This document shows positions 4,964-60,350 of a stretch of 64,000 nt of DNA, one piece after another. Location of the stretch: NCBI RefSeq assembly GCF_963921235.1, contig NC_086108.1:65350001-65414000 (forward strand). Reading direction: 5' to 3'. The notes under the pieces are model-generated. The model was given only the letters and a program-made list of their open reading frames with translations. It was not told the origin of the DNA and did not search any database. The stretch is from Mobula hypostoma. Its lineage: Eukaryota. Every line of letters begins with the position of its first letter. The stretch's first letter is position 1. The translations under genes and the position numbers were made by a program.

Positions 4964-5170
4964 CAGTTTTGCAGATATGATTTGAATGAGTAGACCATTA
5001 CAAAAATCTACACAAACTAGAGGACATTAGTTTAAGGGGCAAGAGATTTAGAGGGGATCTGAAGGGGTACTTTTCACCCAGAAAGTGGTTAGCACCTGGT
5101 ATGCATTTCTGGCTAATGGTGGAAGCAGAGATACTGAGAGCATTGAAGAAGTGTCGAGGAAAGCACTTAA

Positions 5171-5263
5171 GCAACATACGCAAATTGCTGGAGGAACTCA
5201 GCAGGCCAGGCAGCATCTATGGAAAAGAGTACAGTTGATGTTTCAGGCCAAAACCCTTTGAGA
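5171..5263 (-). mobile_element. Short Penelope-like terminal fragment inserted in a CR1 3' end
   Basis: GCTGGAGGAACTCAGCAGGCCAGGCAGCATCTAT family end. TSD AAAGCACTTAA at 5160-5170 and 5264-5274. Confidence 0.8.
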
Positions 5264-5871
5264 AAAGCACTTAAAACACCCAGTCATAGAAAGCTACAGG
5301 TCAAGTGCTGAAAGTTGGGATTAATGTGGGTGTTCATTGGTCTGTGTAAACATAGTGGGTCGAATCACCTGGTTCCATGCTGTATGACTTTCTCCAAAAA
5401 TGACTTGGAGCTCACCCTCTCAATTTCTGTTGCTGATCTTACAATGGCTTGGTAACTAAAGATGAAGTAGTTTGTTTCTGGTGTAGAGGTGACTAAGTTA
5501 AATAATTTCCCATTTGTCCCACAGTTTAATTCTGTTCCACTCAGAAGCTTAGTAAAAGAAAGGTGCAACAATTTTGGTGACAAAGACGATAAAAGTGCTG
5601 GGACAATCATGCAGCTTTGTTTGATAACAGTTTGCATTTGACTAGTACTGTAAAGCATCTTTTCATTTCGATCAGGACTCATATGCCATCATAAAGCAGA
5701 CAGAAGTGAATTTCTGTGGGTAGTCCAATTTGAGAAAGATGCTTCAGAGTCTTTTTCTATTGATGGAGTCAAAGACCTTTGTGAAGTTAAAGAAAAGTAT
5801 TAAGATTGATACTGCTCTCTGTATATCCCTTGGGACCGAATCACAATCTTCTGGAAAGACAACTACAATTA

Positions 5872-8188
5872 GTTAGGACAAGTGACGGAAGTCTGTGTAG
5901 GGGAGCACTTTGGTTCCAGTGATCATAACACCATTAGTTTCAACTTGATTATGGATAAAGATAGATCTGGTCCTAGGGTTGAGGTTCTAAACTGGAAGAA
6001 GGCCAAATTTGAAGAAATGAGAAAGGATCTAAAATGCGTGGACTGGGACAGGTTGTTCTCTGGCAAGGACGTGATCGGTAAGTGGGAAGCCTTCAAAGGA
6101 GAAATTTTGAGAGTGCAGAGCTTGTATGTTCCTGTCAGGATTAAAGGCAAAGTGATTAGGAATAAGGAACCTTGGTTCTCGAGGGATATTGCAACTCTGA
6201 TAAAGAAGAAGAGAGTTGTATGACATGTATAGGAAACAGAGAGTAAATAAGGCGCTTGAGGAGTATAAAGAGTGCAAGAAAATATTTAAGAAGGAATTCA
6301 GGAGGGCTAAAAGAAGACATGAGGTTGCCTTGGCAGTCAAAGTGAAGGATAATCCAAAGAGCTTTTACATGTATATTAAGAGTAAAAGGATTGTCAGGGA
6401 TAAAATTGGTTCTCTTGAAGATCAGAGTGGTCAGCTATGTGCGGAACCAAAAGAAGTGGGGGAGATCTTAAATGGTTTTTTTGTGTCTGTATTTACTAAG
6501 GAAACTGGCATGAAGTCTATGGAATTAAGGGAAACAAGTAGTGAGATCATGGAAACTGTACAGATTGAAAAGGAGGAGGTGCTTGCTATCTTGAGGCAAA
6601 TTAAAGTGATTAAAGTGGATAAATCCCCAGGACCTGACAGGGTATTCCCTCGGACCTTGAAGGAGACTAGTGTTGAAATTGCAGGGGCCCTGGCAGATAT
6701 ACTTAAAATGTCGGTGTCTACAGGTGAGGTGCCGGAGGATTGGAGAATGGCTCATGTTGTTCTGTTGTTTAAAAAAGGATTGAAAAGTAATCCGGGAAAT
6801 TATAGGCTGGTAAATTTGTCGTCGGTAGTGGGTAAGTTATTGGAGGGTGTACTAAGAGACAGAATCTACAAGCATTTGGATAGACAGGGACTTTTTAGGG
6901 AGAGTCAACATGGCTTTGTGCACGGTAGGTCGTGTTTGACCAATCTATTGGAGTTTTTCGAGGAAGTTACCAGGAAAGTGGATGAAGGGAAGACAGTGGA
7001 TGTTGTCTACATGGACTTCAGTAAGGCCTTTGACAAGGTCCTGCATGGGAGGTTAGTTAGGAAAATTCAGTCGCTAAGTATATATGGAGAGGTGGTAAAT
7101 TGGATTAGAGATTGGCTCAATGGAAGAAGCCAAAGAGTGGTAGTAGAGAATTGCTTCTCAAAATGGAAGCCTGTGACTAGTGGTGTGCCACAGGAATCAG
7201 TGCTGGGTCCATTGTTATTTGTCATCTATATCAATAATCTGGATGATAATGTGGTAAATTGGATCAGCAAATTTGCTGATGATACAAAGATTGGAGGTGT
7301 AGTGGACAGTGAGGAAGGTTTTCAAAGCTTGCAGAGGGATTTGGACCAGCTGGAAAAATGGGCTGAAAAATGGCAGATGGAGTTTAATACAGACAAGTGT
7401 GAGGTATTGCACTTTGGAAGGACAAACCAAGGTAGAACATACAGGGTAAATGGTAAGGCACTGAGGAGGGCAGTGGAACAGAGGGATCTGGGAATACAGA
7501 TACAAAATTCCCTAAAAGTGGCGTCACAGGTAGATAGGGTCGTAAAGAGAGCTTTTGGTACATTGGCCTTTATTAATCAAAGTATTGAGTATAAGAGCTG
7601 GAATGTTATGATGAGGTTGTATAAGGCACTGGTGAGGCCGAATCTGGAGTATTGTGTTCAGTTTTGGTCACCAAATTACAAGAAGGATATTAATAGGGTT
7701 GAAAGAGTGCAGAGAAGGTTTACAAGGATGTTGCCGGGACTTGAGAAACTCAGTTACAGAGAAAGGTTGAATAAGTTAAGACTTTATTCCCTGGAGTGTA
7801 GAAGAATGAGGGGAGCTTTGATAGAGGTATATAAAATTATGATGGGTATAGATAGAGTGAATGCAAGCAGGCTTTTTCCACTAAGGCAAGGGGAGAAAAA
7901 AACCAGAGGACATGGGTTAAGGGTGAAGGGGGAAAAGTTTAAAGGGAACATTAGGGGAGGCTTCTTCACACAGAGAGTGGTGGAAATGTGGAATGAGCTG
8001 CCAAATGAGGTGGTAAATGCGGGTTCTTTTTTAACATTTAAGAATAAATTGGACAGATACATGGATGGGAGGTGTATGGAGGGATATGGTCCGTGTGCAG
8101 GTCAGTGGGACTAGGCAGAAAATGGTTCGGCACAGCCAAGGAGGGCCAAAAGGCCTGTTTCTGTGCTGTAGTTTTTCTATGGTTTCTA
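5872..8188 (+). mobile_element. Young 5'-truncated CR1-clade LINE with near-intact ORF2
   Basis: End of the AP endonuclease (GSSDHN), one frameshift near 6215, then a 632-aa ORF (6216-8114) with YMDFSKAFDKV and SKFADDTK. Short 3' UTR ends in TTCTATG-like repeats. Confidence 0.95.
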
Positions 8189-8556
8189 ATTCCAAAACCA
8201 ACTGTTTGGTCAGGGAAGAGGAGTGTTGGAGAGCCATGATAATAACTTTTCACATAGCTGACAGAAGTAGTTACCCCAAATGGACTTATATTTACTTTTC
8301 AATATGATTATAATTACTGAGTCTCTCAGATCTTCTTGAACATCCGTGCCCCCCCCCCAACTCACCATGCCATCCCCAACCATATCCTAGGTGTGGGAAA
8401 TGAGGTTGTGACTATGTGAATTTCGTAAGTTCCTTTCGAACAAATTGTAGAACTTCAGCAGTGATGCCTCCTGCTTCTTTTTATTTTCAGTCGGAGTGTG
8501 ACTTCTTAGGGTTCTTACCTGTCAGGGATGCTGGTCAGACTCAGCCAGAAAATTTG

Positions 8557-8900
8557 CTATGGAACTGAGTCAATAATATTCACATTCAGCACAAAGTCAT
8601 AGTTAAGTTGTTCTTTAAATAATTCCTTCCAGTGTGCCTCCCAAACCTTGATAAGTTCATTTGAATTCTGGCACTCAGTAGGATGTACTGCTGGATATTT
8701 GTTTTTCACAGTGCTGACGAATCTGTACGTCATGGTTATCATCGAGCTGCTGGATCTCCTCTGCTGTTTTCACCCACCATCTGTTCTTTAGGTCATGAGC
8801 TTTCTTTTTCACCTTGTCCTTCAAATACTATGAGCTACTCCTTTACTGTTGATCTTTTACTTAACTCTACCTTGTTTACTTGTTGTTTAACAAGTTGTGG
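8557..8900 (-). mobile_element. Old RTE-like LINE remnant
   Basis: ORF fragment HWKELFKEQLN..IDSVP resembles the RTE ORF2 linker. Confidence 0.4.
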
Positions 8901-9815: not shown

Positions 9816-11547
9816 AATTGTGTATTTGATATTTCAATAATATCTGAGTAATCTTGTATAATCTTAAGCATTCCAGTTTATTTAAATCATTAATTACAGC
9901 TTATATGTAAAAATATGTTAATTGCATATGTTGTCACACTACCACGTGATGTGTACACCTCATTTAAAGTAAAGATGAAGTTACACCTTCATTCCCGAAC
10001 TGGACCCCAGAGTCTTTCTTTAATTTAATTTAATGTTTTGAAGTTACAAAACATCGCATTGGTGGAGAGGTATTTTTACAACAAACCCAAGACGGCTACC
10101 GACCTGATAAATGCAGCAAGATGTTCAACTTAAAAAAAAATGCAGCCAGGACCCAGTCTGGTACGTGTAGTGAGACGGCTGAGTTCTTAAAAAGATTGCA
10201 TGACAGCACATTTTCTTTGAACGATTTTTTAAAAAGTAAGAAAATGGAAAAATTCACATGTTCGTAAAGAGTGAGTTATGTCTAATAATAATCATTTAAG
10301 AAGAATCAGAAATGGTAGGCTAATTCAGAGAGACGGATGAGTTTGGTTACACAACAGGCCATTGGCTCATATGTACTGAGCTATTGGAATAGTATTTTGA
10401 AGCAAATGAAACAGCCATTGAGAAGCGCGTGCCAATTTTACTGTGTTTATTGGGTTTAAGTGAATGCAATTTGCTTTGAAGCTTGTCTGCTCCCACCAAA
10501 CCATCAGAAGTGAGCTTTGCTGTTGTAAAAGCAGATGCAAATTCCAAAGCCTAGCTGAATGAATGGAAGGCCAGAAAGAAAGAGGTCAGTGGAGATAGGA
10601 AAACAGAGGACTTGTCAGATGATGTTGAGAATGAAGAAACCAAGAGGAGCGATCAGATCATAAAGGGAGCAATAGAAGGATTAAAAAGAGAATACTTCAG
10701 TGAACTAAATGCACCGTCCAAGATCAAGATGCACAAAGTAGAAGATAAGTGGCACAGTAGTGCAGTGTGGTGACCCAGGTTCAATTCCTGCCACCTGCCT
10801 GTAAGGAGTTTGTACATTCTCTCTGAGACTGTGTGTGTTTCCAAAGACATACCATTTGGTAGGTTAATCAGTCATTGTAAATTGTCCCATGATTAGGCTC
10901 AGATTAAATCTGGGGGTCACTGGGCAGTATGACTTAAAAGGGACGGAAGGGCCTAGTCCATGCTGTATCTCAATAAAAATAGAAAGAAAAGGGAAGAAGG
11001 AAGGTGGCTACTGCTGTCAGAACCACTTCTTACAGAGTCAACTCCTACAACCCCTGCTGAGGAGGCCCCAGAACCTGAGATTGTTTCACAGCCAGAAGTC
11101 TCACCTGCCAAGTTGAGTGATTCCTACTTGTCAGGAACAACATTATTCCACAAGACATTCTCCACAGTGAAATCTTTAAGTCTGAATGGGACAATTTAAA
11201 ATTTACTATGCTATGGATGTCTTTATATAGTGGTTGTATTATACAGTATATTGTGTATATAGCATTCTATATTAAGTTTATAGCTAAGCAGGGAGGAGCG
11301 TTGTGTATTTGATATTTAAATAACATTTGAATAATCTTGATTATATTTTGTTTGATTAAGCATTCATGTTTGTTTGCATAATTCATTATGGGTTATATGT
11401 AAAAATACAGTAACTCCATACGTGATCATAATACCACGTGATACATGCGTGCCTACTTAGAGTAAAGATGATGATACACCTGTATTCCTGGACTCCCTGT
11501 GTCTTTCTTTGAAATAATTTAATGTTTTGAAGTTACAAAACATAACA
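9816..11547 (+). mobile_element. Internally deleted Gypsy LTR retrotransposon
   Basis: Diverged LTRs of about 245 bp (about 9816-10058 and 11299-11547), both ending GAAGTTACAAAACATnnCA. PBS-like TTGGTG follows the 5' LTR and PPT AAGCAGGGAGGAG precedes the 3' LTR. A gag remnant (YFEANE..EKRVPILL..APTKPSE) lies at about 10310-10520. Confidence 0.85.
10750..10980 (+). mobile_element. V-SINE/HE1-like SINE nested in the Gypsy element
   Basis: tRNA-like head (GGTTCAATTCC), GTAAGGAGTTTGTACATTCTC core, GAAGGGCCT..GCTGTATCTC tail. Confidence 0.75.
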
Positions 11548-13609: not shown

Positions 13610-13900
13610 TTATTTATTTATTGAAATTCAGTGAGGAATACGCCCTTCTGGCCCTTTGAGCTGTGATGTCCAGCAACCTGAGATTTAACCCTATCCTAAT
13701 CATGAGACAATTTACAATGACTAATTAACCTACTAAATGGTATGTCTTTGAACTGTGGGAGAAACTGGAGCTCCCACAGAAAACCCACACATTCCTTGGG
13801 GAGAATGTACAGACACCTTACAGATAATGTCAAAATTGAACTCTAATGCTCTGAACTGTAATAGCATTGTGCTAACCACTATGCTACTGTGGCACCCAGT
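13610..13900 (-). mobile_element. V-SINE/HE1-like SINE
   Basis: Reverse complement of the V-SINE core (GTGGGAGAAACTGGAGC..AAACCCAC). Confidence 0.75.
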
Positions 13901-15164: not shown

Positions 15165-15800
15165 AATCATAATCAGGTTTATTATCACTGAATTATATGC
15201 CATGAAACTCCTGCCAGCTTATACTCCTTTCCTTCTCCCCACCTTCTATCTGGTTTCTTCCCACTATCTTTCGAGCTCTGGTGAAGGATCTTGGCCAGAA
15301 ACATTGACTGTTCATTTCCCTCCATAGATGCTGCCTGAACAGTTGAGTTCCTCAGGCACTTTGTGGGTATTATTTTTTATTGTTATTTGTTTTTTTTTGC
15401 AGCAACAGTTTAGTGCAAAGACATAAAATTACTATAAATTACAAAATAAATAAAGTGCAAAAAGGAAATATTGAGGTGCTGTTAAAAATCTGATGGAGGA
15501 GGGGAAGAAGCTGTTTCTAACTCCTTGACTGTGAGCTTTCAAGCTTTGTACCTCCTCCCCAATGTTAGGAACAAGAAGAGGGCATATCCCAGATAATGAA
15601 CGTCCTCAGTGAAGTATGAATCCTTCTTTGAAGCATCACCTCTTGAAGATGTTCTCAATACTGGGGATAGTTGTGCCCATGGTGGGACAAGCTGAGCCTA
15701 CAACTCTCTGCAGCCTCGTACGATTCTGTGCATTAGAGCCTCCATACCAGGCTTTCATACAACCAGCCAGAATGCTCTCCATTGTGTACCTTTAGAAATA
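15165..15800 (-). mobile_element. Rex1/Babar LINE 3' fragment containing a Penelope-like terminal insert (about 15210-15372)
   Basis: Reverse complement of the same C-terminal motifs and tail as 14155-15022. Confidence 0.7.
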
Positions 15801-18048: not shown

Positions 18049-18350
18049 TTCTTCAAAACTCTAGCAAACATTACCCCAGAAAACTCAACCATTTAGTCCA
18101 GTATTTGATTTGGAACCTTTACTGCACTCAAGTACAACCTTCTGAAAAGAGAGCCTATATATATATTTTGTGTGCAGGGGAAAGGGTCAATGTGCCTGTT
18201 CTGTATTTGTTGTTTTTTTGTGCCGGGAGGGGGGATTTGGGGGTTGATAATCATGCTGCAATTCTTTTCTTTCTTGGTTTCATGGCTACCCGGAGAGGCA
18301 GAATTTCAGAGTTGTATACTTTGATAATAAGTGAACCTTTGAACTATCTT

Positions 18351-18498
18351 TTGGATCTCCCCCTCCCCCTTTCAAATCTCTTACTAGCTCTTCCTTCAGT
18401 TAGTCCTGACGAAGGGTCTCGGCCTGAAACGTCCACTGTACCTCTTCCTAGAGATGCTACCTGGCCTGCTGCGTTCACCAGCAACTTTGATGTGTGTT
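18351..18498 (+). mobile_element. Penelope-like solo terminal repeat with hammerhead motif
   Basis: TSD CTTTGAACTATCTT at 18337-18350 and 18499-18512. Hammerhead motif at 18402-18437. Confidence 0.85.
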
Positions 18499-27954: not shown

Positions 27955-28931
27955 CATGTGTCAAACACATTCTGGTGCCATCCTAGCATGTCTGCAATGC
28001 TCCGGGGAACAGTACATAACTCAATAAGCATCAAACAACAACAGCAAAAACAAGCTTCATTCCTTCCTCCCACCCACACATATACACAGTCTAACCCCAT
28101 GATAGACCTCCAGTTCCATCCCCCACCAGACATGATTCAGGCCTGCTAACATAATGCATTTCATTGTATGTGTCAATGTACATATGACAAATAAATTAAT
28201 CTGAATCCTGCATCACCTGTAGGGGCTGTTTAGGTCCCTGCATGGGGGTGAGGAAGGAGTTGTAGGACAGGTGTGTACCTGCTCTGGTCACCCAGTTCCT
28301 CCTGCACATATCCACTAACACCCTCATTAGTACTGGCTGTCTCTGTTCTCTTTCAGCCCAGCGGAAGGGTCTTGACCCAAAACATCGACTTTCCTATTCC
28401 CTTTACAGATACTGCCTGCCCCATTGTGTTCCCCCAGCAGATTAATTTTTAATGCTCAAGGATTCATTGTTTCTCCAACTCCAGGCTTTGACATGATCAA
28501 GTGAACATGACATTTTCTTCACCACATTATTAATGTGGTGCCTTTAACCTTCCATTCCTAAACCTAATGTTGTCTTCTTTTACTTGGTGTAATTCTTTTG
28601 GCTTCTCAGTTGGCTTCCATGAAATGCCTTTGTGCAGGTTACAATGTTATTTGTGTTTTATAAATGCTGTTTTATGTTTTATCAGATACTTCGTGAGAAT
28701 TGCATTTAAAGTGATTAAATATGCTCAATAATATTACTGAATTTGAATATGAGTTAAATGTTTGAAAACTTTTGGTTCATTGTCATCCTCCAACTTATGA
28801 ACAAGGCTTGTCCTTGTTAATAGCTTTACATTATATTTTTTATTAAAAATGTCCTGCAAAACATTAGATAGTTGAAAATTACAACCTTTTTTTGGCCAAA
28901 ACTCATATCATTTTGTTTGTTTTGTTCATAG

Positions 28932-30856: not shown

Positions 30857-32712
30857 GATAGGTAACTAAGAATTATTGGAACAAAGTGAGAGAAAATTTC
30901 TAAAATTTTTGAATTAATAGGATGAGGCTGTGGATCCTGCCTGCAATCCTGCATTTATTTTCAACTCTAATTGTACCTGAATAAGGAAGCAGTAAGGGCC
31001 AACTGCATTTGCGGATCTTAGTTAAGGATGGCAGCTTCCCTTTCCTGAAGGGCATTAATGAACTAGGTAGATTTGTATGATCCAAAAAACAAACTACTGG
31101 AAGAACTTGGTGAGTACAGTGCAGCTATTGAGGCAAAGAGATATGTCTTCCCTCTTCACTCTCAATCTTGATTCAGGGTCTTGATACAAAACGCTGATCA
31201 TCTCTTTTCCACCACAGATGCTGCCTTACCCACTGAGTAACTTCTTCCAGCAGTTTTTTAAAAATCTAGATTCTTGCATCTGCAGTCTCTCGTGTCTCAA
31301 TTGTCAAATCGTTATACCATGGATTTGGTGATGTCTGAAATTGTGTAATTCATAAAACTTGGAAGTCTCTGGTATTCTCAAGCAATATATTTGAGCTGTA
31401 GTTTCTATCTAAAGTCATATTAAATAACTCAAAACTCAGCATTCTTTCAACTAACTCGCAGAAGTACGTCCACATTTCCTTCAAAGGCATAGATTTAAAC
31501 AGTGGACATGGAGGAAGACCATAACCTCATTTTTTTAATTTATTGGTCGAGTTCAATCTTGACATCCTGTCTGGTTACCACGTCAGGCTCATCCTACTCT
31601 AACCTGATGTTTGATTTTGCTTTCAGTAGATTTCACCAGTTAGTATTCAGAGGTAGTAATTGAAGATTACTTTTTCCTTGTTTATTTTAGCCAGACAGCG
31701 TCTAAGTTAGAACTGGAACATATCTTTTTCAACTAAAATATTAGAATATTGGAAGTGCTGATTTAAAGTGCCCAACGTGTAGTCGGTTCTTTTGTCTCTG
31801 ACTCCTATCACTTCTCTCGTTTAATCTTCTGGTATATATTCAGACCGTTTCTGCTTTGAAATCACGGTAGAAGCCAAAGTAAGCTTACAGTTGCGTATCT
31901 GCTCTACTCATCCGCTTTCTACAATCACCACTCTTCCTGTCCAGTTCATCAGCTGCTGGAACGCTCATCTGTTACTGTTTTGGGACTGAAATGTACCAAT
32001 ACACTCCTGTTCATCCTCCCATATGTCACCACACTTCAGATAGTAATCAAAAACTTTGTCTCTACCTAGAGCTCCAACCATCCCATTCACCAATTTACTT
32101 CTATATTTAATGATCATTTAAAAATATGTTCATGCTGTGCTACACAAATGGATGATCTGAGGCAAAGTTACTTCTTGAAAACAATCCAATAAACTAAAAA
32201 AATACAAATCAATTTCTTCAGATATTCTCCAGCTTTCAGGTTCCATATCTTAAGCCAGGTGTTCGTATCATGTAGCAAAGTTAATAGCAATTGAATATCG
32301 TACCAACAATTGTTATTGAAAACAAATTTTTAAAATAAATTCCACTTTTTGCTAGATAACCAAGTACTAATCGATATTGCACTTTAGTTCTGAATGTCAG
32401 TCTGTTACGGTTCAGTCACATATTTAACCAGGAATGGCATTGATAAACAATCAAAAACTAATTCATTTCGATGTACAACATGTAGCCCTACAGTCACAAT
32501 CTTTAAAGTGAGATATTCCTATTATTGTTGATTTTTTTAATGTCACAGACTCTGCTTTTAGCATAAATAGAAACTAAATAATATGGTTATATAACTTGGT
32601 AAGTTGAGCTGCCTCAAATAGCAGTTTTGAAAAGTAATTGTTATTGAGGGCTAGTTTACAGATCAGCCACCTTGTAAGGATTGATTTTTGACTTGTTTTT
32701 CATTCTTCCTAG

Positions 32713-32841: not shown

Positions 32842-33712
32842 GTAATTTTTTTTCATTTTTGTTATCATAGAAGTTTGAGTATTTGCTATTAGATTTTCAA
32901 GTTGTGTGTCATTATACTGTATGTCGTGCCTATCATAGAAAAGATCTTAAATGTTATAGGATTTTTAAAATTTAGCCTTGATTTTCATTAATTGTCAGTT
33001 TTCTAAATAATTTTAAGCCAGTAGAAACATTAATGTTACATTAAGACTGGGTGGCACGGTAGTGGTAGTGTAGCAGGTAGCATAATGCTATTACAGTGCC
33101 AGAGACTTGGGATCAATTCCTCCGCTATCCGTACATTGCAATGATAAATGGTTTAGACAGTGAATTGATTACACAGATGTAAGTGGGAGTGTGGGCTTGT
33201 TGGGCCTGAAGGACCTGTTACCATGCTGTATATCTAAATAAATAAAAAAAATTGGGAAGTTACAAAATTAAGCACCATTTTTAGATTTTTACCAAATGAA
33301 AGCTAATAAATAATTTCCTTTTTCCAGTCTTTAGATTTTTTATATAACTAGATATAGTTAAATAGTACTTATCAAATAGGGGAACTGATGAGAAACCTCA
33401 TATTTTTGTGCAAGAATATAATTTGGATAGTATAATTATGAACCTAACAAATGCTGAATTGCAGTTTATTGAAGTCATGTTCATATGTCAGTGCTTCTGC
33501 TGTTTATGGAGCCAGAAGATGAGACTGATGATTTGGGATGCTATTGACAATTCTGCTCTTTAGTTTGTTGCTAGGAGTAGTGTCAGTTATTTGTCCATTT
33601 CCTTCCCTCCGGGTAGGTGCCAGCCTTTTCGTGAGTGCTTCGACAGTAAGTGGACATTAAATTTGTTTTTGTGAAAACATAGCATTATAGGAGTACATGG
33701 CAATGCTTACGA

Positions 33713-34685
33713 GTGTATTCTTTCCATCCATTGTGCTGTTTTTGCCAAAACGTAATTCTCCACAACTTCTGCCGTATCCACAGGGATCATACTACCAAAC
33801 ATGTTTTTATCTCACCCCACCTTCTCTCCGCTTTCCAGAGGGATCGCACCCACCGCGATTTCTGTGTCCATTTGTCCTTCCCCACTAATCTTCCTCCCGG
33901 CACTCAGCCCTGCAAGTGGCCAAAGTGTTCCACCTGCGCATTCACCTTCTCCATTACCTCCTCTCATGGCCCCAAACAGTCCTTCCAGGTGAAGCAACGC
34001 TTCACCTACCAATCTGGGGTCACCTGTTGTGTCCTATGCTTCCTATGCAGCCTCCTCCACATTGGTGAGACCTGTCGTAAATTGGGGGAACTGCTTCGCT
34101 GAGCACTTCCACTCCACCTGCCAAAAGTGGAACTTCCTGACGACAAACATTTAAATTCCATTTCTTGTTCTGACATGTTGGTCCATGGTTTCCTCTTGTG
34201 CCATGATGAGGTTACCCTCATGGTGGAGGAACAAGGGCTTATGTTCCATCTGGGTGGCCACCAACTTGATAGCATGAATATCGATTTCTACTTCTGGTTT
34301 AAAAAAAAAATTCTCCCTCTCCTCTCTTCTTATATTCCTTGCTCTGGCCTCTTGCCTCTTCTGACCTGTCAGTCACCTCCCCCTGTGTCCCACCCCCCTT
34401 TCTTTAATCCTTCGCTCTACTCCCCTCTCCTATCGGATTCCTTCCTCTCCCTTTACCTTACCTACCCACCTGGCTTTACTTATCACCTTCTAGCTATCTT
34501 CCTTCCCCTTGACCCTCTTTACTCTGGCATCTTCCCCCTTCCTTTCCAGTTCTGAAGAAATGTTTTGGCCTGAAATGTCGACTGTTTATTCATTTCCATA
34601 GATGCTGCTTGACCAGCTGAATTCTGGTAGCATTTTGTATGTGTTGCTCTGGATTTCCAGCATCTGCAGAATTTCTCATGTTTAT
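33713..34685 (+). mobile_element. Penelope-like element 3' part (GIY-YIG endonuclease plus terminal repeat)
   Basis: GPKQSFQVKQRFT..CSLLHIGETCRKLGE, a pyrimidine-rich tract, and a degenerate hammerhead at about 34548-34583. Confidence 0.85.
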
Positions 34686-34702: not shown

Positions 34703-34945
34703 AACACACATCAAAGTTGCTGGTGAACGCAGCAGGCCAGGCAGCATCTCTAGGAAGAGGTACAGTCGACATTTCAGGCCGAGACCCTTCGTCTAACTCT
34801 TCCTTCAGTTAGTCCTGACGAAGGGTCTCGGCCTGAAACGTCGACTGTATCTTTTCCTAGAGATGCTGCCTGGCCTGCTGCGTTCACCAGCAACTTTGAT
34901 GTGTGTTGCTTGAAATTCCAGCATCTGCAGAATTCCTGTTGCTTA
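34703..34945 (+). mobile_element. Fold-back Penelope-like terminal repeat insertion
   Basis: Inverted arms at 34703-34793 and 34817-34907. TSD CTGTTTCCTTT at 34692-34702 and 34946-34956. Confidence 0.9.
34811..34846 (+). ncRNA. Minimal type I hammerhead ribozyme motif (Penelope-associated)
   Basis: AGTC-CTGACGA-AGGGTCTCGGCCT-GAAA-CGTC-GACT: helix I AGTC/GACT, CUGANGA and GAAA core, palindromic ACGT in place of helix III, and a GUC triplet. Confidence 0.75.
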
Positions 34946-35204
34946 CTGTTTCCTTTGTTCCTTTTGTTTGTTTTTTCCTTGTATTAACAGATCATGTAAT
35001 GAATCCTTTCATTCATTGTAATTTTCCTATTTTTTTCCTTTTTTCTTTTCAGCAAGTACAACAAGCAGCATAGTTTATTAAATAAGAAGTCTTTCAGAAT
35101 TTGGGTCCCAGGAAAACTATTTAAAATCTTGATTATGATTAGGCTTCATTTCTAACTTAAAAAAAAGAAACATTTCCTGTGGCCACATTTTCATTTTATT
35201 ATAG

Positions 35205-42377: not shown

Positions 42378-42860
42378 TATCACACACAAAATGCTGGAGG
42401 AACGCACCAGGCCAGACAGCCTCTATAGAAAAGATCAAACAGTCAACATTTTGGGCTGAGACCCTTCACCAGGACTGGAAAAAATTGCCCCCCTCCCTCT
42501 TCCCTCTTCTTATTGCCCATCACCTCCCTCTGGCGCTCCTTCTCCTTCCCTTTCTTTCATGGTCTTCTACCCTCTCCTGTCAGATTCCCCCCTTCTCCAG
42601 CCCTTTATCTCTTTCACCAAACAACTTTCCAGCTCTTTACTTCACCCCCCCCCACCTCCCGGTTTCACCTATCATCTCCCACCTTATACATCTTCCTCCC
42701 GCCCCCCATCTTGCTCTGACTTCTCATCATTTTTTCCCAGTCCTGATGAAGGGTCTCAGCCTGAAATTATGACTGTTTAATCTTTTCCGTAGACGCTGCT
42801 GAGTTCCTGCAGAATTTTGTCTGTGTTGCTTTGGATATTCAGCGTATGCAGATTTTCTTG
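42378..42860 (+). mobile_element. Fold-back Penelope-like terminal insertion
   Basis: Inverted short arm at about 42381-42484 and a degenerate hammerhead at 42739-42774. TSD TGGATGATA(C/T)TTAGG at 42363-42377 and 42861-42875. Confidence 0.85.
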
Positions 42861-46479: not shown

Positions 46480-49400
46480 TGGGGGGCTGTAGTAAGAATG
46501 AGCAACCAATCCATGCCACTGTGAGCAGCAAAGGACTAAATTAAAATGTGGAACAAAAACCTAATAAACTCTGGATTGTTACCTGAGCCTCTTGCAAATT
46601 GGCACAGGATTAATGAGATCAGAGAGTTAAATGCATGGCTTGTAGATTGTTGTGGGAGAAGTAGGTTTGAATTTGTGGGACATTGGCACCAGTATTGGGG
46701 AAAGAGGGAGCTGTTCCGATGTGACAAGCTCCACCTGAACCAGGCTGAGTTCAGGATCCTGGAAATCGCACTACTAAGGTTGTCGATAGGGTTTTAAACT
46801 AAGTAGTAGGTGGGTGAGCTCAACAGTTTGGAGAAGAACGGACAAAGTTAAAGGGAAGGAGAATGCTGGAGAGGTTACTGAAGTCTCCAGAATAAAGAAT
46901 AAGACCAAGTTTCGAAAGGGATAAAAATTTAATTTCAGGCAACATGGAGATAAAATTGAGAAGAAGGGTGGTGAATGCAGAACTGGAGGTGTTTTCTTTG
47001 AACGTATGCAGTATATGAAATAAGGTAGAGTGGTTAGAAATCAGCAGCTATGGTGTTGTGGGCATTACTGAGTCATGGCTGAAAGGAGATCACTGCTGGG
47101 AGCTGAACATCCAAGGATGCATATCCTATTGGAAAAGTGGGCAGAGGGGTTGGGGTGGCTCTGTTGGTTTTAAAGATAAAGAAATAAAGTCCTTAAAATG
47201 AATTGACACAGGATGAGAAGATGTTAAATCCTTGTGGGCAGTGTTAAGAAAATGCAAATGTAAAAAGACTCTGATGGGTCTTTAGAGACATCCGAGCAGT
47301 AGCCAAGATATGGGATACAAATTACAATGGGAACGAGAAGACATAAAAAGGGCAATGGTAGGATGCTCATGGGGGAATTTTAATATGCAGATACTGTAGT
47401 TAGGAAAAATCAGGTTGATACTGGATCCCAAGATGAGAAATTTGTACAATGTCTACATGATGGGTTTTTAGAGCAGCTTGCGGTTGAGCCCAGCAGAAAA
47501 ACGTAAATTCTAGATTTGGTGTTGTGCAATGAACCAGATTTCACTACAGAGTCTATGGTAAAGGAACCTTTTCAGGAGAGTGATCATTGTATGATAGAAT
47601 TTAACCTGCAGTTTGAGAGGGAGAAGTTAAAATCAGATGTATTGGTTCTACATTTGAGTAAAGGTAATTACAGAGGCATGAGAGAGGAGCTGGCCTAAGC
47701 TGATTGGAAGGGGACACCTGCGGGGATGACCAGAGGGCATTAATAGTTGGAGTTTCTGGGAATAATTCAGCAGGTGTAGGATTGGTTCATTCCAAAGAAG
47801 AAGAGGCATTCTAAAGAGAGAATGAGGCAACTGTGGCGGACAAGGGAAATCAAAGACAAGATAAAAGCAAAAGAAAGGGCATACAATATAGCAAAATTAG
47901 TGGGGAGCTAGAGGATGTTTGTAAAAACCAACAGAAGTCAACAATAAAGCACTGAAAAAAAAAGATGAAATATGGTGTTAGCTAGCCAATATTATATAAC
48001 AGTATACCAAAAGTTTTTTTTTAAGATATACTGTATAAAGAGTACAAGTGAGGCAAGAGCGGTCATTGGGCTGTTGGAAAATGACGCTGGAGAGTTAGTA
48101 ATGAGGTACAAAGAAATAGTATATGAATTGAATAAGTATTTTGCTTCAATCTTCACTATGGAAAACACTATTAGCATGCCGAAAAATTTGAGAGAGTCGG
48201 GGCAGAAAGGATTGGAGTTGCTATTAGTAAAGATTAGGTGCTTGGGAATATGAAAGGTCTGAATGTAGATAAGACACTTGGACCAGATGGAATACACTCC
48301 AGGGTTCTGAAAGGAGCAGCTGAAGAGATTGTGGAGGCATTAGTAGTGATTTTTCAAGAATCACTAGATTCTGGAATGGTTCTGAAGGACTGGAAAATCA
48401 CAAATGACTAAGAAGGGAGGGAGGCAGAGGAAAGGAAATTATGGGCCAGTTAGCTTGATTTCAGTGGTTGATAAGATGTTAGAGTCTATTATTAAGGATG
48501 AGGTTTCAAGAGGCAAATGGTGAAATAGGCCGAAGTCAGCATGGTTTTAATAAGGGAAAAGCTTGCCTGACATATCCGTTGGAATACCTGGAAGAAGTAA
48601 CAGGCAGGATAGACAAGGGAGAATCAAGGTATGTTGTTTACTTGGATTTTCAGAAGGCTTTAACAATGTACTGTACATGAGTTTGCTAATCAAGACAGGA
48701 GTCCGTTGTATTACATGAAAGATACTAGAATGGACAAAAGATTGGCTGACTGGCAGAACCCAAAGAGTGACAATGAAGTGGACCATTTCTGGTTGGTTGC
48801 TGGTGACTGGTGGTGTTCCGCAGGGGTCTGTATTGGGTTTGCTACTTTTTGTGTTATACGTTAATGATCTGGATATCAGAATTGATAGCATTGTGGCCAA
48901 GTTTGTGGATGCTACAATTAGGTGAAGGGGCAGGTAGTATTGAGGAAATAAGGAGTCTGCAGAAGGACTTGGACAGATTTAGAGACTAGGCAAAGACTTG
49001 GAACATAGAACACAGCACAGAGAAGTATATTGTCCTGCAGTTTGGTTGGCAGAATTAAAGGTGCAGACTATTTTCCAAATAGGGAGCAAATTCAGAAATC
49101 AGAGGGCAAGGAAACTTGGAAGTTCTGCTGCAGGATTCCATAAAAATTATAGAAGGATTATTGGAAGTTGAGTCATTAGTAAGGAGGGCAAATGCAATGT
49201 TAGCATTCATTTTGAGAGGACTAGAATATAAAAGCAAACGTGTAATGCTGAGATTTTATAAGGCATTGGTCAGATGTCACTTGAAATACTGTGAGCAGTT
49301 TTGGGTTTCATCCCGAAGTAAGGATGTGCTGACATTGGAGAGGGTCTAGAGGAGAATTACGAGACTGATCCCTGGAATAAAAGGGTTAATGAATGAGGAC

Positions 49401-51244: not shown

Positions 51245-53305
51245 GACACAAGAGGAAATCTGCAGATGCTGGAAATCCAAGCAACACCCACAAAATGCTG
51301 GAGGAACTCAGCAGGCCAAGCAGCAGATGTAGAAAAAAGTTCAGTCGATGTTTCAGACTGAAAACCTACGGCAGGACTGGGGGAAGAAAGCTGAGGAGTA
51401 AGTTTAAAAAGTGGGGAGGGGGAGAGAGAAACACAAGGTGATAGGTGTAACCTCAAGGGGAAGGGATGAAGTAAAGAGCTAGGAAGTTGGTTGGTGAAAG
51501 AGGCTGAAGGCCTTGGAAGAAAGAAAAGGTGGGAGGAGCACTAGAGGGAGGTGATTAGCGGACAGGGAGATAAGGTGAGAAAGGGAAAAGGGGATGGGAA
51601 AAGGTGAAGAAGGGGGTTGGAGGGGTTGGGTGGCATTACCGGAAATTCGAGAAATTGATGTTCATGCCATCAGGTTGGAGGCTACCCAAACGGAATATAA
51701 GGTGTTTTTCCTCCAACCTGAGTGTGGCCTCATCACAATAGTGGAGGAGGCCAAGGATAGACATATCAGAATGGGAATGAGAAGTGGAATTAAAATAGGT
51801 GGCCACTGAGAGATCCCGGCTTTTTATGGTGGATGGATTGTAGGTGTTCAGCGAAATGGTGTACCAATCTACGTCAGATGTCACCGATTTACAGGAGACC
51901 ACAGCGGGAGCACCGGACACAATACATGACCCCAACAAATGCACAGTGTTGCCTCACCTGGGGGACTGTTTAGGGCCCTGGATGGTAGTGAAGGAGGAGG
52001 TGAAGGGGCAGGTGTAGCGTTTGTTCAGCTTGCAAGGATAAGTGCCAGGTGGGAGATCAGTGGGCAGGGACTAATGGACAAGTGAGTCATGTAGATTGAA
52101 AAGCCTCACCTATACCTCTTCCAACCCTGTTACTTGTAAAAACACTATCCCCCTTCTCTCAATTCCTCCGTCTGCGCCGCATCTGCTCTCAGGATGATGA
52201 AGCTTTTCATTCTTGAACAAAGGGGATGTCCTCCTTTTTCAAAGAAAGAGGCTTTCCTTCCTCCACCATCAATGCTGCCCTCAACCGTATCTCTTCCATT
52301 TCACGCACGTCTGCTCTTACCTCATCCTCCCACCACACTACCAGGGATAGGGTTCCTCTTGTCCTCCCCTACCACCCTACCAGCCTCCATGTCCAGAACA
52401 TAGTTCTTTGAAGCTTTCGCCATCTCCAGCGGGATCCCACCATCAAGCACATCTCCCCTCCCACTTTCTGCTTTCTGCAGGGATCCCTATGTGACTCCCT
52501 TGTCCATTTGTCCCTCCCCACTGATCTTCCTCCTGCAACTTATCCTTGCAAGCAGAACAAGTGCTACATCTGCCCCTACATCTCCTCCCTCACTACCATT
52601 CAGGGCCCTAAACAGTCCTTCAGGTGAGGTAACTCTTCACCTGTGAGTCTGTTGGGGTCAGATACTGTATCCAGTGCTCCTGTTGTGGCCTCCTGTATAT
52701 GGGTGAGACCCGTCGTAGATTGGGAGCCCGCTTCGCCGAGCACCTACACTTCATCCGCCGGAAAAAGCAGTGGCTACCCATTTTAATTCCACTTCCCATT
52801 TTTTCCATTCTGATATGTCTATCCATGGCCTCCTCCACTGTCGTGATGAGGCCACACTTGGGTTGAAGGAACAACGCCTTGTATTTCGTTTGGGTGGTCT
52901 CCAACCTGATGGCATGAACATTGGTTCCTTGAAATTCCCATAATGCCCCCCACAACCCTCTCCTTCATTTCCTATCCCCCTTTCCCTTTCTCACCTTATC
53001 TCCTTGCATGCCCATTGCCTCCCTCTGGTGCTCCCCCCCCCCCACCCTTTTCTTAGTTCCTTGGCCTTCTGTCTCTTTCACCAACCAACTTCCCAGCTCT
53101 TTTACTTCATCCCTTCCCCTCCGGGTTTTACCTATCACCTTGTGTTTCTCTCTCCCCTCTCCCCTCTCCCCACCTTTTAAATCTACTCATCAGTTTTTCT
53201 TCCCCAGTTCTTTCAAAGAGTTTTGGCCTGAATTATATCGACTTTACTTTTCTCTATTGATGATGCCTGTTCTGCTGAGTTCCTCCAGCATTTTGTGTGT
53301 GTTGC
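51245..53305. mobile_element. Inverted pair of Penelope-like 3' halves
   Basis: Minus arm about 51245-52095, plus arm about 52100-53305. The plus arm encodes YCIQCSCCGLLYMGETRRRLGARFAEH (GIY-YIG). Confidence 0.9.
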
Positions 53306-53425
53306 TCATTTCTGTAATAATCGGGTTGATTATAAGGATATTCTGTATATTTTTAAAATGACTTTTTATGCTCCATATAAGGTGAGATTCATGAAAATAT
53401 TTTTTATTGAAATGCTTTATTTTAG

Positions 53426-55067: not shown

Positions 55068-55655
55068 TGAGAAGCAAACTTCTCAAAGAACTTAGCAAGT
55101 CATACTACATCTGTGGAGGCTGTGGATGGTATTTTGATTGGAAACCCCGCATCAGGACTGAGTGTGCGGGGGAGAAAGATAACCAATCGAAGGAGTTGAG
55201 ACAGTGGTTCGCAAGTGACAGGTAGAATGATCTGAGAAGGTAAGTGATTGCTGGAGATGGCAGGTGAGGGAGGAGAGGAATGGTGTCAGGAGATATTGGC
55301 TGCTAGGTGGAGATAGATAAGGACAAAGGGCTAAAAATGTTTGACTTTGCTGTTCTCCCCTCCCCCACCTGACTGCATCTGTTCATCATCCTACTTCCTA
55401 CCGTGTTCCAGCTGTTGCATCCCAGCCCCTGCGTCACCCTCTGTCCCACTGTTTATCCTATCCCTCTTCTATGTCTATCTCACTCTTGATGAAATAAATG
55501 ATGAAATGAAAGAGAGCACTGTTAACTCCTGATGAAAGGTCTCAACCCGAAACAGATCATTCTTTTGCCTCCACAGATGCTGCTGCACCAACTAATTTCC
55601 TTCAGTAGTTTGTCTTTTGCTCCAGATTCTAGCATCTGCAGTCTGTTGGATTTCC
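55068..55655. mobile_element. Old fold-back Penelope-like remnant
   Basis: Inverted family ends with degenerate CTGATGA...GAAAC at about 55529-55553. Confidence 0.65.
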
Positions 55656-58600
55656 AATAGAGATAGCTAGCCTTTAAAGCATTTTAGACATAAGTTGTAC
55701 AAATTGCTCATCATTTCTTTTGTGTTTTATCATTAACAACCATTCTGTTGAATCTAATTTGCACTTGCATTTCACTTAGTTCATTATTAATACAGAATTT
55801 GGATTCTTTGACCGCTTTTGTTTAATTTTACAGTTCAGTTATACAAAAATACATCAAATAGAAGATTGTGTGGTTTGACGAAGCATTTTTAAAAACAGTT
55901 TTCCAGCATGTTTTTTGTCCTTAAGGAAAGGCTGGGTTTTGTCAGGTGACTCACAGGATCTGTTGGTGGTTGATGCCATAAAGTCAAGAATTTACTTGGT
56001 TCTAAATTTAGGAGATGATATTATTTTATATTTTAATTATTTGAAGGCAATAGCTTTAGTTCTATATCCTCATGCAAGGGGTATTCAATTGAATGATGTA
56101 TTTATTAAACAAATGAAATCATTGGTCAATATGGTAAAAATGATTATTTGTTTTATTCATTTTTGATAATGGCTGAGACTGGGAAGAACAACAGTTCCTA
56201 CGGTTCCTATGTTCGTACTCACCAGTAATGACGGATTTGCTATCTATTTTAACGTTGAGGTAGTATGTGACGAATGGAGTAGGCAGATGGTGGTTTTGCC
56301 ATGCACGTGAATCCTTTGTCGTCTTTAATATGATAGAAGTTGCAGATTAGAATGTTTTATAGGAGGAGCCAAAGTGAACAAGTAGACATTTTGTAGATCA
56401 AGGATGGCCAATCCGTGGTGCACGTGGCAAAAGTGGCCCATTGGATGATTAGAAGTGGCGCATTGCACCCCAATGATAATAATAAAAAAGTAAGCCTACT
56501 CATGTAAAAAGTGTTAACCAAAAACCGATTTGTAGAAAAAAAATCTTTAACAGGAATTCAAGTAACTTCGAGCTAGAAATGGGTTTTACTGAGAATAAAT
56601 CTAAAACTTAGCAATTATTTTTAGCAATTTTATTATTTCATGCACATCTTTTGGTGAATGTTATCTTCTTCCACATTAATCTGTTTTTAATTCAGAGAAA
56701 ATGTTCAGTGAGTCAAACTAGGAAAGAAGGACTTTTGTTCTGCACTTGTTCCATAACTGTTCCATACAGGTTTGATACTTAATCGATCCTGAGGCGCCAG
56801 GCGTCTGCACCAGCGGTGTGTCGCAGGTTTTTGCCAGTCAGTTTACAATTGGCACTCGTGCGCTACGGAGTTGTGCTGTGTTTGTCCTTTGTGAACATTT
56901 GCAGTTTTGCACTTTTTTGAAAATTAAGCCTTGCTTTTACATTCAGTTACCCATCACAGTGCAAAAGAAAATGAGCAAAAGAAAAGCAAAAATTGATGGT
57001 AAGCGTGAATTCAATGAACAGTGGGAAAATGAGTTCTTATTTATAGCAGGTCCATCAGGAAAACCATTGTGCATTGTTTGTGAAAACACTTTCTCACATA
57101 GTACAAGACATGATCTTAATAGACACTGTAGAACACAATATCAGACTGAAATAGAAGGAAAACTGAAGCTGGTGCTTGGGTCTGAGTTACGGAAAGAATA
57201 TGTCATTAAGAAAAAGGAAGAAATCAAAAGAAGACAAAATATATTTGTTAAAAGAATTTGTGAAAGATTGGTGATGACAGAAGCGTCCTATGAAATTGCT
57301 TTAGTGGTGACCAAAAAACGGAAGTCTTTCTCTGATGGAGAAGAAATTGTTAAGCCTTGTCTCCAAATATTTGCAAGATGTCTTGGTGATAAAAATATCG
57401 AAAGGAAAGTAGGCGAAATTGCTCTGTCAAAGCAAACAGTTAGGAGACGCGAAGAACTCTATCAAACAGTTAGGAGACGCACCAAAGACGCACCGATGAA
57501 AGACCTTGTCCATGTTTGTACTTTCTTTTCTTTAGCTTTGGACGAATCTGCTGACATATGTGATGTAACCCAGTTAAGCATTTTTATAAGAGGAATTGAT
57601 GATAATTTTAGCGTCTTTGAAGAACTTATCGGTCTTGAGTCGCTTCATGGAAAAACAAGAGGATCAGACATATTTGCAAAGTAAAATCAGGCCTAGAAAA
57701 TCTACAACTAGATTCTAGTAAACTGATCGGTGTTTGTACTGAAGGAGTGCCGTCAATGATAGGTAAAGCCGCTGGGACTACAACTTCGCTTGAAAACTTT
57801 TTAGGTCGTCCTCTACTAAAATATCACTGCATTATACACCAAGAGTCACTGTGTGGAAAAACTTTACATTTGCAGCATGTTATGTTACTGGTTGTGAAAT
57901 GTGTGAATAAAATTAGAGGAAGAGGATTTAAACAGGTGAGAATTCAGAGAATATTGTGAAATATTAGATCTGGAATATGGCGATCTTGTCCTTCATTGTG
58001 AGGTGAGCTGGCTTTCTAGAGGACAGGCTCTGAGTAGATTTTGGAAACTGAAAAATGTTGTTCATAATTTTCTAGAAGAGAAAAATGAGCTGCCTGAGGA
58101 AAGAACCCTTTTATGTGATAACAATTGGCTATTTGATTTAGTATTTTTAGTTGATGTTTCCAGCCATCTCAATGATCTAAATTTGAAACTCCAGGGCAAG
58201 AACCAATTGTTTCCTAGCTTAGTAAATGATATCAATGCATTCAAGATGAAGTTAAAACTGTTCACCTCTCAGTTAGAGAATGAGGATTTGAGCCAGTTTC
58301 TGCACTTAAAAGAGCAGAGTGAATGTGCTGGAGATAATGACAATTTTACAAAATATATTGAAAAAAATCAGGTTATTGCAAGAGTCATTTGAAAGTCGTT
58401 TCGTGATTTTGCTTAAGAAGAAGACTGCATTCTTGCGCTTATAAACCCATTTTCACTTAGTGGACAAAAAATCATGAAGATGGAACTTATTGATGAAAAC
58501 AAATTCATTATTGAACATGAAGTTTGATGAGCTTCCCTCAGTCCCAAATGCTTCTGACATGATTAATTTCTGACAATCATTACCCTGTGAACATTTTCCA

Positions 58601-59002
58601 GAACTAAGAAAATTTGCCCAGAGTTATACCAGGCAACAGACATAAAAAGTGCTGGTGAATGCAGCAGGCCAGGCAGCATCTATAGGAAGAGGTATAGTTG
58701 ACGTATCGGGCCGAGACCCTTCGTCAGGACTAACTGAAAGAGTATATAGTAAGAGATTTGAAATTGGGAGGGGGAGGGGGAGATCTGAAATGATAGGAGA
58801 AGACAGGAGGGGAAGGGATGGAGCTAAGAGCTGGAAAGTTGATTGGCAAAAGGGATACGAAGCTGGAGAAGGGAGAGAATCACGGAATGGTAGGCCTAGG
58901 GAGAAAGAAAGGTGGGGGGGGCGAAGCCCAGAGGGTGGGCAAGGGGTTATAGTGAGAGGGACAGAGGGAGAAAAAAAAGAGGGGCGGGGGAGGAGAGGAG
59001 AG

Positions 59003-59003
59003 A

Positions 59004-59042
<39 letters not shown>

Positions 59043-59044
59043 AT
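59003..59044. repeat. (AAAT)n microsatellite
   Basis: About 10 perfect units. Confidence 0.95.
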
Positions 59045-59635
59045 AGGGATGGTGTACAAAGGGGAGGTGGGGCATTAACGGAAGTTAGAGAAGTCAGTGT
59101 TCATGCCATCAGTTTGGAGGCTACCCAGACGGAATATAACGTGTTGTTCCTCCAACCTGAGTGTGGCTTCATCTTGACAGAAGAGGAGACCATGGATAGA
59201 CATATCAGAATGGGAATGGGGTGTAGAATTAAAATGTGTGTCCTCCTCTACTGTCAAGATGAAGCCACACTCAGGTTGGAGGAATAACATCTCATATTCT
59301 GTCTGGGTAGCCTCCAACCTGATGGCATGAGCATTGACTTCTCCAACTTCCGTTAATGCCCCACCTCCCCTTCGTACCCTATCCCTTATTTATTTATTTA
59401 TGTATTATTTTTTCTCCCTCTGTCCCTCTCACTATAACCCCTTTCCCATCCTCTGGGCTTTTCTCCCTAGGCCTCCCGTCCCATAATCCTCTCCCTTCTC
59501 CAGCCACATATCCCTTTTGCCAATCAACTTTCCAGCTCTTAGCTCCATCCCTCCCCCTCCTGTCTTCTCCTATCATTTCGGATCTCCCCCTCCACCCTCC
59601 CACTTACAAATCTCTTACTATCTCTTCTTTCAGTT

Positions 59636-59671
59636 AGTCCTGACGAAGGGTCTCAGCCCGAAACGTCGACT
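59636..59671 (+). ncRNA. Minimal type I hammerhead ribozyme motif
   Basis: AGTC-CTGACGA-AGGGTCTCAGCCC-GAAA-CGTC-GACT, with helix II GGGU/GCCC and an intact core. Confidence 0.75.
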
Positions 59672-60350
59672 GTTCCTCTTCCTATAGATGCTGCCTGGCC
59701 TGCTGCGTTCACCAGCATTTTTTGTGTGTGTTGCTTGAATTTCCAGCATCTGCAGATTTCCTCGTGTTTGCCCAGAGTTATATCTGTTGTTTCGGAACGA
59801 TGTGCAGATGTGAACAAGCATTTTCAGCCATGAAGTTGATTAAAAATACTGACTGACTGATTCAAATTTGAAGAATTCTCTGCTGCTCTAAGTAAATAAT
59901 TTAACTCCAAACATTAAAAGTTTGGCGAAATCAAAGCAGACTCAAAAGTCTCATTAAGGTAAGTAATGTTTATCTCGTTTTTATATTAAATAAATATATC
60001 ATGTAAAAATGCTAAATATGTGTATATTAACCTGAATGGGGGTACAAGAGTTGTATGGCGCATCTGAACTCACGCGTAAAAAAATTGACACATGGAATGT
60101 AAAAGGTTGGCCACCCCTGTTGTAGATGGTACACATTGCCGTCTCTGTGTGTCGTAGAATGTTAAGTTACTTGTGAAGCATGCTGTTTTGCACTGAATGG
60201 AGTCGTTTAAGTATTGTTGGAGTTGCACTCATCCAGACAGATGGAAAGTATTTCATTATACCACTAATTTGTGCCCTTTTTAATAGTGGAAAGGCTTTGG
60301 AGTGTCAAGAGGTGAATTATTTGCTGTAAAATATCCAGCCTGTGACCTTT

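Follow-up and report, generated by a model that had tools for sequence, protein, structure and literature searches.

The genome of the ray Mobula hypostoma carries, within a 64,000-nucleotide (nt) stretch of contig NC_086108.1 (hereafter the window), 11 insertions of a Penelope-like element (PLE) that share a terminal sequence with a minimal hammerhead ribozyme motif. With a probability that we put at about 0.86, these insertions are ordinary, dead-on-arrival copies, either 5'-truncated or folded back, of a Neptune-type endonuclease-positive (EN+) PLE, and they belong to several subfamilies or ages. This explanation is carried by the target-site duplications (TSDs) that frame the young copies, the fixed 3' ends, the free 5' ends and the continuity of the longer arms with the C-terminus of the element's open reading frame; in two fold-backs, moreover, the arms are not nested in one another. 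On present evidence the insertions are neither a retrozyme nor a family of unit length.

Framing and ends of the insertions

The window is AT-rich (61%), repeat-laden eukaryotic DNA, and the 11 insertions comprise 17 arms and amount to ~6.4 kb, or ~10% of its bases, the edges of the old copies being approximate (Table 1). Five of them (E1 to E5) had been described in an earlier sequence-only reading as insertions with TSDs of 11-16 bp, and they were recovered at their positions: direct repeats of this length frame all five, the score that they obtain in a TSD search was matched in one of 150 trials with random position pairs, and a gapped alignment of the flanks gave a null p of 0.0015 or less in every case. 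The older copies placed by the same reading near 15210, 28350, 31090, 34550, 51245-53305 and 55068 all carry the terminal unit, and none of these six has a TSD demonstrable above chance (p of at least 0.32 in the gapped flank alignment). Each of the three young fold-backs is framed by a single TSD pair, and the AT content around the five TSDs is 0.60-0.71, as compared with 0.61 for the window.

The insertion E5 interrupts a reading frame. Its left part stops one base short of the left TSD's end, its right part resumes two bases past the right TSD, and the two would join in phase in the empty site, which provides an independent check of the insertion. The target is a decayed DNA-transposon open reading frame (ORF), at 56776-58628 and 59783-59853, broken near its C-terminus. 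A weak match to the Spin-doc zinc finger lies upstream (E 4e-4), Pfam returned no match in the two flanking pieces tried, and by its motifs the target looks like the end of a hAT transposase.

Measured from the predicted cut site of the hammerhead, the 3' ends fall at two points. The proximal, or short, end lies at +65 to +71 in six arms (E1, E2, the left arms of E3, E4 and E5, and the right arm of O51/53), and the distal end at +99 to +105 in four (the right arms of E3 and E5, the left arm of O51/53, and O34), to which the right arm of E4 may be compared, at +90 with a deletion of 9 nt. The 5' ends, measurable in 11 of the 17 arms and in several cases placed by eye to a few bases, lie 23, 26, 40, 49, 83, 286, 431, 537, 751, 879 and 1142 nt above the cut; no two of these 11 coincide, the closest pair being 3 nt apart. 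The arms, 89-1209 nt long and all unequal, form one nested series, short and long together, that shares the two 3' points. Although the sample is small, variable 5' ends combined with two fixed 3' ends indicate 5'-truncated copies and no unit-length family. The proposal that the terminal unit is a non-autonomous retroelement in its own right is not supported: there is no shared 5' end, the series is nested and the window has no tandem array of the unit. The sequence-only reading had itself held that random 5' breakpoints would make these ordinary truncated copies, and the 11 ends are all unequal.

Identity between arms ranges from 97% (E2, E3) down to ~72-80% in the old copies, a spread that implies several subfamilies or ages in the window. 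A profile search with nhmmer returned 23 rows, 16 of them at E 2e-15 or better, which are the profile's own training sequences and match by construction. It added one arm beyond that set (31137-31085, minus strand, E 0.012); the six weak rows (E 0.26-8.7) were dropped. The reversed window gave two rows, with a best E of 1.9.

Six of the 11 insertions are head-to-head fold-backs whose 3' ends point outward, so that the arrangement of an inverted partial copy plus a full end, which had been noticed earlier, stands for these six but for only three of the five named insertions. The word of the tail occurs on exactly one arm in all six pairs, clearly in five and ambiguously in O55. In E5 and O51/53 the arm with the short end goes deeper into the ORF and the tail is found only on the other arm; since each arm holds private sequence, neither is a copy of the other. 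The youngest fold-back, E3, sits ~10-20 nt from the tail end of the older O34 (34684-34703), a placement in line with the reported nicking close to the element's own terminal repeat.

The parent element and its hammerhead motif

In five of the 17 arms the terminal unit continues upstream without interruption, by way of a pyrimidine-rich 3' untranslated region (UTR), into a broken ORF. The description of the copies as non-coding units of 90-500 bp is therefore apt for most arms but not for these five. With X at two stops, positions 52100-52624 matched 1472 proteins at E of 0.001 or less in an unindexed search, and a word-indexed protein search with 33737-34099 gave no significant match among 32 candidates. 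Among named proteins, the closest matches are uncharacterised ones from Hypanus sabinus (73% and 69% identity) and from Mobula hypostoma itself (65%). Full-length relatives (883-946 aa) contain GIY-YIG in four of four scanned and RVT_1 in three of four, by Pfam matches that are mostly near or under the Pfam cut-off; the GIY-YIG match of the window copy is weak (E 0.021).

In alignments, the C-x4-C-x2-C linker is found both in the window copies and in their homologues, and the CCHH residues of the endonuclease (EN), that is, a pair of cysteines lying between the GIY and YIG boxes and a pair of histidines further downstream, have aligned counterparts in the homologues, those of the window ORF being spread across two frames of the broken copy. 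The ORF in the window covers the region from the thumb of the reverse transcriptase (RT) to the C-terminus, with neither RT core nor a located start, and there is no full-length element or partial-tandem pseudo-long terminal repeat (pLTR) within the window. Judged by published diagnostic features (10.1101/2021.04.23.441226), the element is an EN+ PLE of Neptune or Nematis type. A CX2-5CxxC linker between RT and EN is a feature of the Neptune clade, though common to Nematis and not exclusive, and the label "Neptune-type" used here follows from the linker and the vertebrate host. The young subfamily has a (TAAA)n/(ATTT)n microsatellite in its 3' UTR, directly after the stop codon (59003-59045 and 59379-59415), of unequal length in the two arms of E5.

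The hammerhead motif consists of a 5-bp helix I, the CUGANGA box, one extra A, a helix II of 4 bp closed by a 4-base loop, then GAAA, a CG palindrome that replaces helix III, and UC at the predicted cut. Together with the ORF matches, this layout bears out the Penelope origin, the minimal hammerhead and the inverted ends that the first reading had put forward (PMC4209133; 10.1101/2021.04.23.441226). A strict descriptor taken from PMC4209133 has three matches in the window and none in 200 mononucleotide shuffles. The catalytic core is unchanged in four of 16 copies, and core, both helices and palindrome in two of 16; the motif does range from intact to decayed, as had been claimed, but it is not whole in every copy, for E1 and the left arm of E3 start inside the CUGANGA box of the core. 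Of 140 helix cells 82% still pair, a share that falls to 15-44% on sliding. Covariation of the helices, to which the sequence-only reading had looked among subfamilies, is no higher than in shuffles (0.222 against 0.237, with 341 of 500 shuffles at least as high) in a test to which 16 decayed copies lend little power, and such a value is expected for neutral decay from few masters.

Rfam gave no match to a hammerhead family; its one match at E of 1 or less, to the L31 leader, was rejected as chance. By nearest-neighbour energies, which take no account of tertiary contacts, the monomer would rather form a rod in which the core lies buried (-12.9 kcal/mol, against -8.9 for the open form), and the active dimer as drawn (-16.7 kcal/mol) would be less stable than two rods. 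These rod-favouring energies would fit the low or protein-assisted activity described in PMC4209133 and PMC11167929. Folding z-scores were unremarkable in five of six folds.

The base C11.1 is often U, with seven G-U and six G-C pairs among the 16 copies. At the corresponding position, 59659, T makes up 36% of summed depth in sequencing run X1 and 52% in run X16, the latter an RNA run by guess only; this T turns a conserved G-C into G-U, by CpG decay or by a change of subfamily master. The two motifs of each fold-back lie on opposite strands, so that, by the logic of the sequence, one transcript could not form the dimer and would form a long hairpin instead. Cleavage of PLE hammerheads as dimers was reportedly described in a 2017 paper in RNA Biology.

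Downstream of the motif, a 9-bp stem may form between 59686-59694 and 59744-59752, and at the same places in six other tailed arms, enclosing the proximal 3' end. It shows a two-sided change at one of nine pairs, in one of seven copies, and a covariation term of about zero. The word CCAGCA stands upstream of each of the two 3' ends. The stem may set the two sites at which reverse transcription starts.

Other repeats accompany the PLE family in the window. A piece of ORF2 of a long interspersed nuclear element (LINE) occupies 5873-8114, with an uninterrupted frame of 636 aa and an RVT_1 match (E 1e-30), and further LINE scraps lie at ~17049-17800 (with an ALKBH8_N match), 27000-28136, 40700-41500 and 47900-49000. 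Three repeat pairs outside the family, 70-90 nt long and 77-93% alike (9864-9950 and 11356-11442; 10842-10911 and 13681-13750; 17967-18038 and 63504-63575), are probably ends of other transposons. At 4807-4963 a 72-bp unit, unrelated to the hammerhead unit, is present in 2.2 tandem copies.

Table 1. Positions in the window of the PLE insertions, their arms and TSDs, and the reference features of the element. Distances are from the 5' end of an arm to the cut site.
Feature	Position	Strand	Description
Best-preserved minimal type I hammerhead motif	59635..59672	+	predicted cut between 59667 and 59668
Optional tail	59733..59766	+	~34-38 nt, between proximal and distal 3' ends
Broken PLE ORF C-terminus	52100..52940	+	RT thumb, C-x4-C-x2-C linker, GIY-YIG with CCHH residues; stops, frameshifts
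E1, single arm	5171..5259 (alternative right edge 5263)	-	89 nt; short 3' end; starts inside CUGANGA box, 23 nt above cut
E1 TSD	5156-5170 / 5260-5274		15 bp with 1 mismatch, or 11 bp exact
O15, old single arm	15212..15372	+	short end; decayed hammerhead; left edge approximate
E2, single arm	18351..18498	+	148 nt; short 3' end; 83 nt above cut; hammerhead core intact, helix I with one mismatch
E2 TSD	18337-18350 / 18499-18512		14 bp exact
O28, old copy	28205..28466		edges approximate
O28 ORF scrap	28286-28213	-	inverted
O28 terminal unit	28337-28466	+	decayed, adjoining the scrap
O31, old fold-back	31083..31296		right arm with tail
O31 left arm	31083-31147 (profile match 31137-31085)	-	weak (E 0.012); short end; starts at most ~5 nt from cut
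O34, old single arm	33701..34684	+	~980 nt; ORF C-terminus (linker zinc finger, GIY-YIG), 3' UTR, intact-core hammerhead, tail
E3, youngest fold-back	34703..34945		arms 97% identical
E3 left arm	34703-34793	-	short end; 26 nt above cut; begins inside CUGANGA box
E3 right arm	34794-34945	+	tail; 49 nt above cut; motif intact
E3 TSD	34689-34702 / 34943-34956		14 bp with 1 mismatch, 11 exact
E4, fold-back	42378..42860		
E4 left arm		-	~107 nt; short end
E4 right arm		+	~376 nt; whole 3' UTR plus tail
E4 TSD	42363-42377 / 42861-42875		15 bp, 1 mismatch
O51/53, old fold-back	51245..53306		2.06 kb; broken ORF C-terminus on both arms
O51/53 left arm	51245-52097	-	tail; 751 nt above cut
O51/53 right arm	52098-53306	+	short end; 1142 nt above cut
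O55, old fold-back	55068..55655		more distant subfamily; edges approximate; tail on right arm; left arm probably short end (ambiguous)
E5, fold-back	58629..59766		1138 nt; last ORF codons on both arms
E5 left arm	58629-59236	-	short end; 537 nt above cut
E5 right arm	59237-59766	+	tail; 431 nt above cut
E5 TSD	58613-58628 / 59767-59782		16 bp exact

Formation of the copies and competing explanations

Work on a PLE protein has established that it cleaves and extends both DNA strands and is a predicted dimer, that reverse transcription starts at two internal sites of the RNA, whose spacing of 30-40 nt defines the tail, and that hammerhead cleavage is not needed in vitro, with no RNA-seq ends at the cut (PMC11167929). 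In the mechanism proposed here, two nicks placed 11-16 nt apart would each prime a cDNA from element RNA, one at the distal start and the other at the proximal one; both cDNAs would stop early, at comparable lengths, and repair would join them head to head. The product would be a fold-back with a one-sided tail or, where only one cDNA was kept, a single arm. Given that the hammerhead lies 65-105 nt from the start points, nearly every scrap would hold part or all of it, and the inserted motif would then decay, without a partner in cis. The non-nested arms of E5 and O51/53 favour two separately primed cDNAs, and across five fold-backs the length of one arm is rank-correlated with that of its partner (Spearman 0.9, exact one-sided p 5/120, the values of O31 being rough).

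Several points weigh against this account of the insertions. Twin priming is a step that we infer, and PMC11167929 gives no account of inverted copies. Only 11 arms are measurable, five of their 5' ends lie within 83 nt above the cut, and the ends seem more bunched than a single exponential would suggest; one arm of 17, the weak and heavily decayed left arm of O31, starts within ~5 nt of the cut. In three of five fold-backs (E3, E4 and O31), moreover, the short arm covers nothing beyond the span of the long, tailed arm and could be a copy of it. This last observation, along with the similar lengths of paired arms and their common subfamily, would suit an explanation in which the element is the same PLE and the fold-backs arise by self-priming, that is, a cDNA or antisense template folds back and primes its own copying; for PLEs, a version with an antisense template has been proposed (PMC3846280). 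We regard it as rather unlikely here, because simple copy-back of one cDNA cannot yield the private sequence that each arm of E5 and O51/53 holds, and the junctions displayed bear no long palindrome.

A different origin for the fold-backs would be two independent insertions at the same spot, or DNA transposons with terminal inverted repeats, of the kind of miniature inverted-repeat transposable elements (MITEs). Their inverted-repeat ends flanked by a TSD have this appearance, and E3 did insert ~10 nt beside an older copy. Such an origin is nevertheless barely credible: a single TSD pair surrounds each young fold-back (3/3), both arms share subfamily and age, the ends are unequal by the tail, the lengths vary freely, and the interior is PLE ORF and not transposase.

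The contigs of sequencing runs offer a view beyond the window. Words of the queried stretch are present in 20 of the 24 listed runs, and at least half of the words in 11. In run X1, which is possibly not independent of the window and for which contigs only were available, 124,864 contigs fall on 59237-59800 (564 bases), and the peaks of summed depth rise from 13.5 million (ORF end) through 14.7 million (UTR) to 21.8-23.0 million (terminal part). This profile lends weak support to the existence of many ORF-bearing copies, and a further reservation about the truncated-copy explanation is that summed contig depth is not copy number. No site where many molecules begin or end is listed in X1. The commonest loose ends listed (12 of 1003 rows) include 59770-59771, at the distal 3' end, with long unrelated AT-rich flanks, and another at 59636; its loose letters are similar to UTR sequence from older subfamilies, and we take it to reflect subfamily divergence and no breakpoint. 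One contig joint in X1 runs from 59746 to 59636 with a depth of 310, compared with 26-86 for single contigs, and similar joints run from 59709 to 59636 and from 59741 to 59628; they could be head-to-tail repeats of the terminal unit. A metagenome scan with the 30-base motif found no loci, and the 27 loci obtained with a 20-base word (20-34 bases each, mostly on GC-rich contigs) were judged to be chance.

The first of these joints, as a possible head-to-tail repeat of a 111-nt unit, bears on the idea that the terminal unit is a distinct non-autonomous element, akin to a short interspersed nuclear element (SINE) or a retrozyme, whose short RNA, which dimeric hammerheads might excise, would serve the PLE protein as a template in trans. 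To this may be added that 12 of the 17 arms lack ORF sequence, that five of the 11 measured arms are 89-152 nt long, and that one weak arm begins near the cut; elsewhere, tandem hammerhead repeats derived from pLTRs are reported in vertebrates, one cartilaginous fish included (10.64898/2026.07.22.740005), and pLTR sequence alone can mobilise other DNA in trans (PMC3846280). The idea remains very improbable. The 11 arms share no 5' end, and two of the short ones start inside the catalytic core and are thus not ribozyme units; none of the four tandem arrays in the window involves the terminal unit; the motifs of the fold-backs, being on opposite strands, exclude a dimer in cis; and the same subfamily letters are common to short and ORF-bearing arms. 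The depth at the ORF end of the X1 contigs, relative to the terminal part, and the lack of a listed site of many molecule starts also speak weakly against it.

A narrower version would place a minority family of the ray beside the truncated copies: a hammerhead-to-tail unit of ~110 nt that exists as tandem self-processing RNA and is copied in trans by the PLE protein, in which case some 5' ends would record cleavage in vivo at the predicted site. The hints are the X1 joint, the weak arm that starts close to the cut and the clustering of short arms at the hammerhead, and we consider such a family improbable. If it were real, the young two-armed insertions, in their thousands, could show directly whether the ribozyme shapes the template and whether the two nicked strands each prime an RNA of their own.

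Comparison with known systems

PLE copies that are truncated or folded back and carry a minimal hammerhead belong to a known kind. In the open literature searched, no publication on this ray family came up. How PLEs form inverted copies and what the hammerhead does are posed as questions in 10.1101/2021.04.23.441226 and PMC11167929, and a lineage rich in young, TSD-framed, two-armed insertions allows both to be tested by counting. In annotation, labelling such fold-backs as MITEs or as new SINEs is to be avoided.

In the typical PLE arrangement the copy is strongly 5'-truncated, adjoins a second truncated copy in inverted orientation and carries a tail of 30-40 bp on one side (10.1101/2021.04.23.441226). 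The insertions of the window agree with the canonical EN+ PLEs, Neptune and Nematis, in these three respects (see also PMC3846280) and likewise in the variable TSD, the linker zinc finger, the C-terminal GIY-YIG and the hammerhead in the terminal repeat. They differ in that the TSDs are 11-16 bp, as opposed to 8-10 bp in the rotifer cases described, that no microsatellite target was seen, that the window holds no full-length copy or partial tandem, and that their density (~10%) is very high.

The minimal hammerheads of metazoan PLEs mostly occur singly and in association with truncated elements, and some form pairs on opposite strands at a distance of 100-700 bp (PMC4209133), and the motifs described here are likewise mostly single and dispersed, or dual on opposite strands. 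The type I layout, the absence of helix III, G10.1, the extra base between 9 and 10.1 and the palindromic 15.2-16.2 are all shared, whereas helix II has 4 bp here and 7-8 bp in the Schistosoma families, and C11.1 is often U. The Poseidon PAc element of Anolis carolinensis (PMC11167929) also has two fixed 3' start points that define a tail, a hammerhead upstream of them and a predicted stem that encloses the proximal end; it belongs to another PLE clade, its ORF starts inside the hammerhead, and its start region is AC-rich, whereas the proximal end is GU-rich here.

The animal non-LTR retrozymes (PMC7229834; 10.64898/2026.07.22.740005) resemble these insertions as PLE-related, hammerhead-bearing, non-coding sequences of a few hundred bases, and tandem retrozymes are themselves non-autonomous derivatives of pLTRs. 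The feature by which they are recognised is a run of two or more units that each contain a complete hammerhead, and none of the four tandem arrays of the window is of this sort. Retrozymes are head-to-tail tandems of a defined unit, each with a complete ribozyme, whereas the copies in this ray are single or head-to-head, free in length and often cut within the core, and most PLE insertions are reported to be 5'-truncated with a single terminal repeat (10.64898/2026.07.22.740005).

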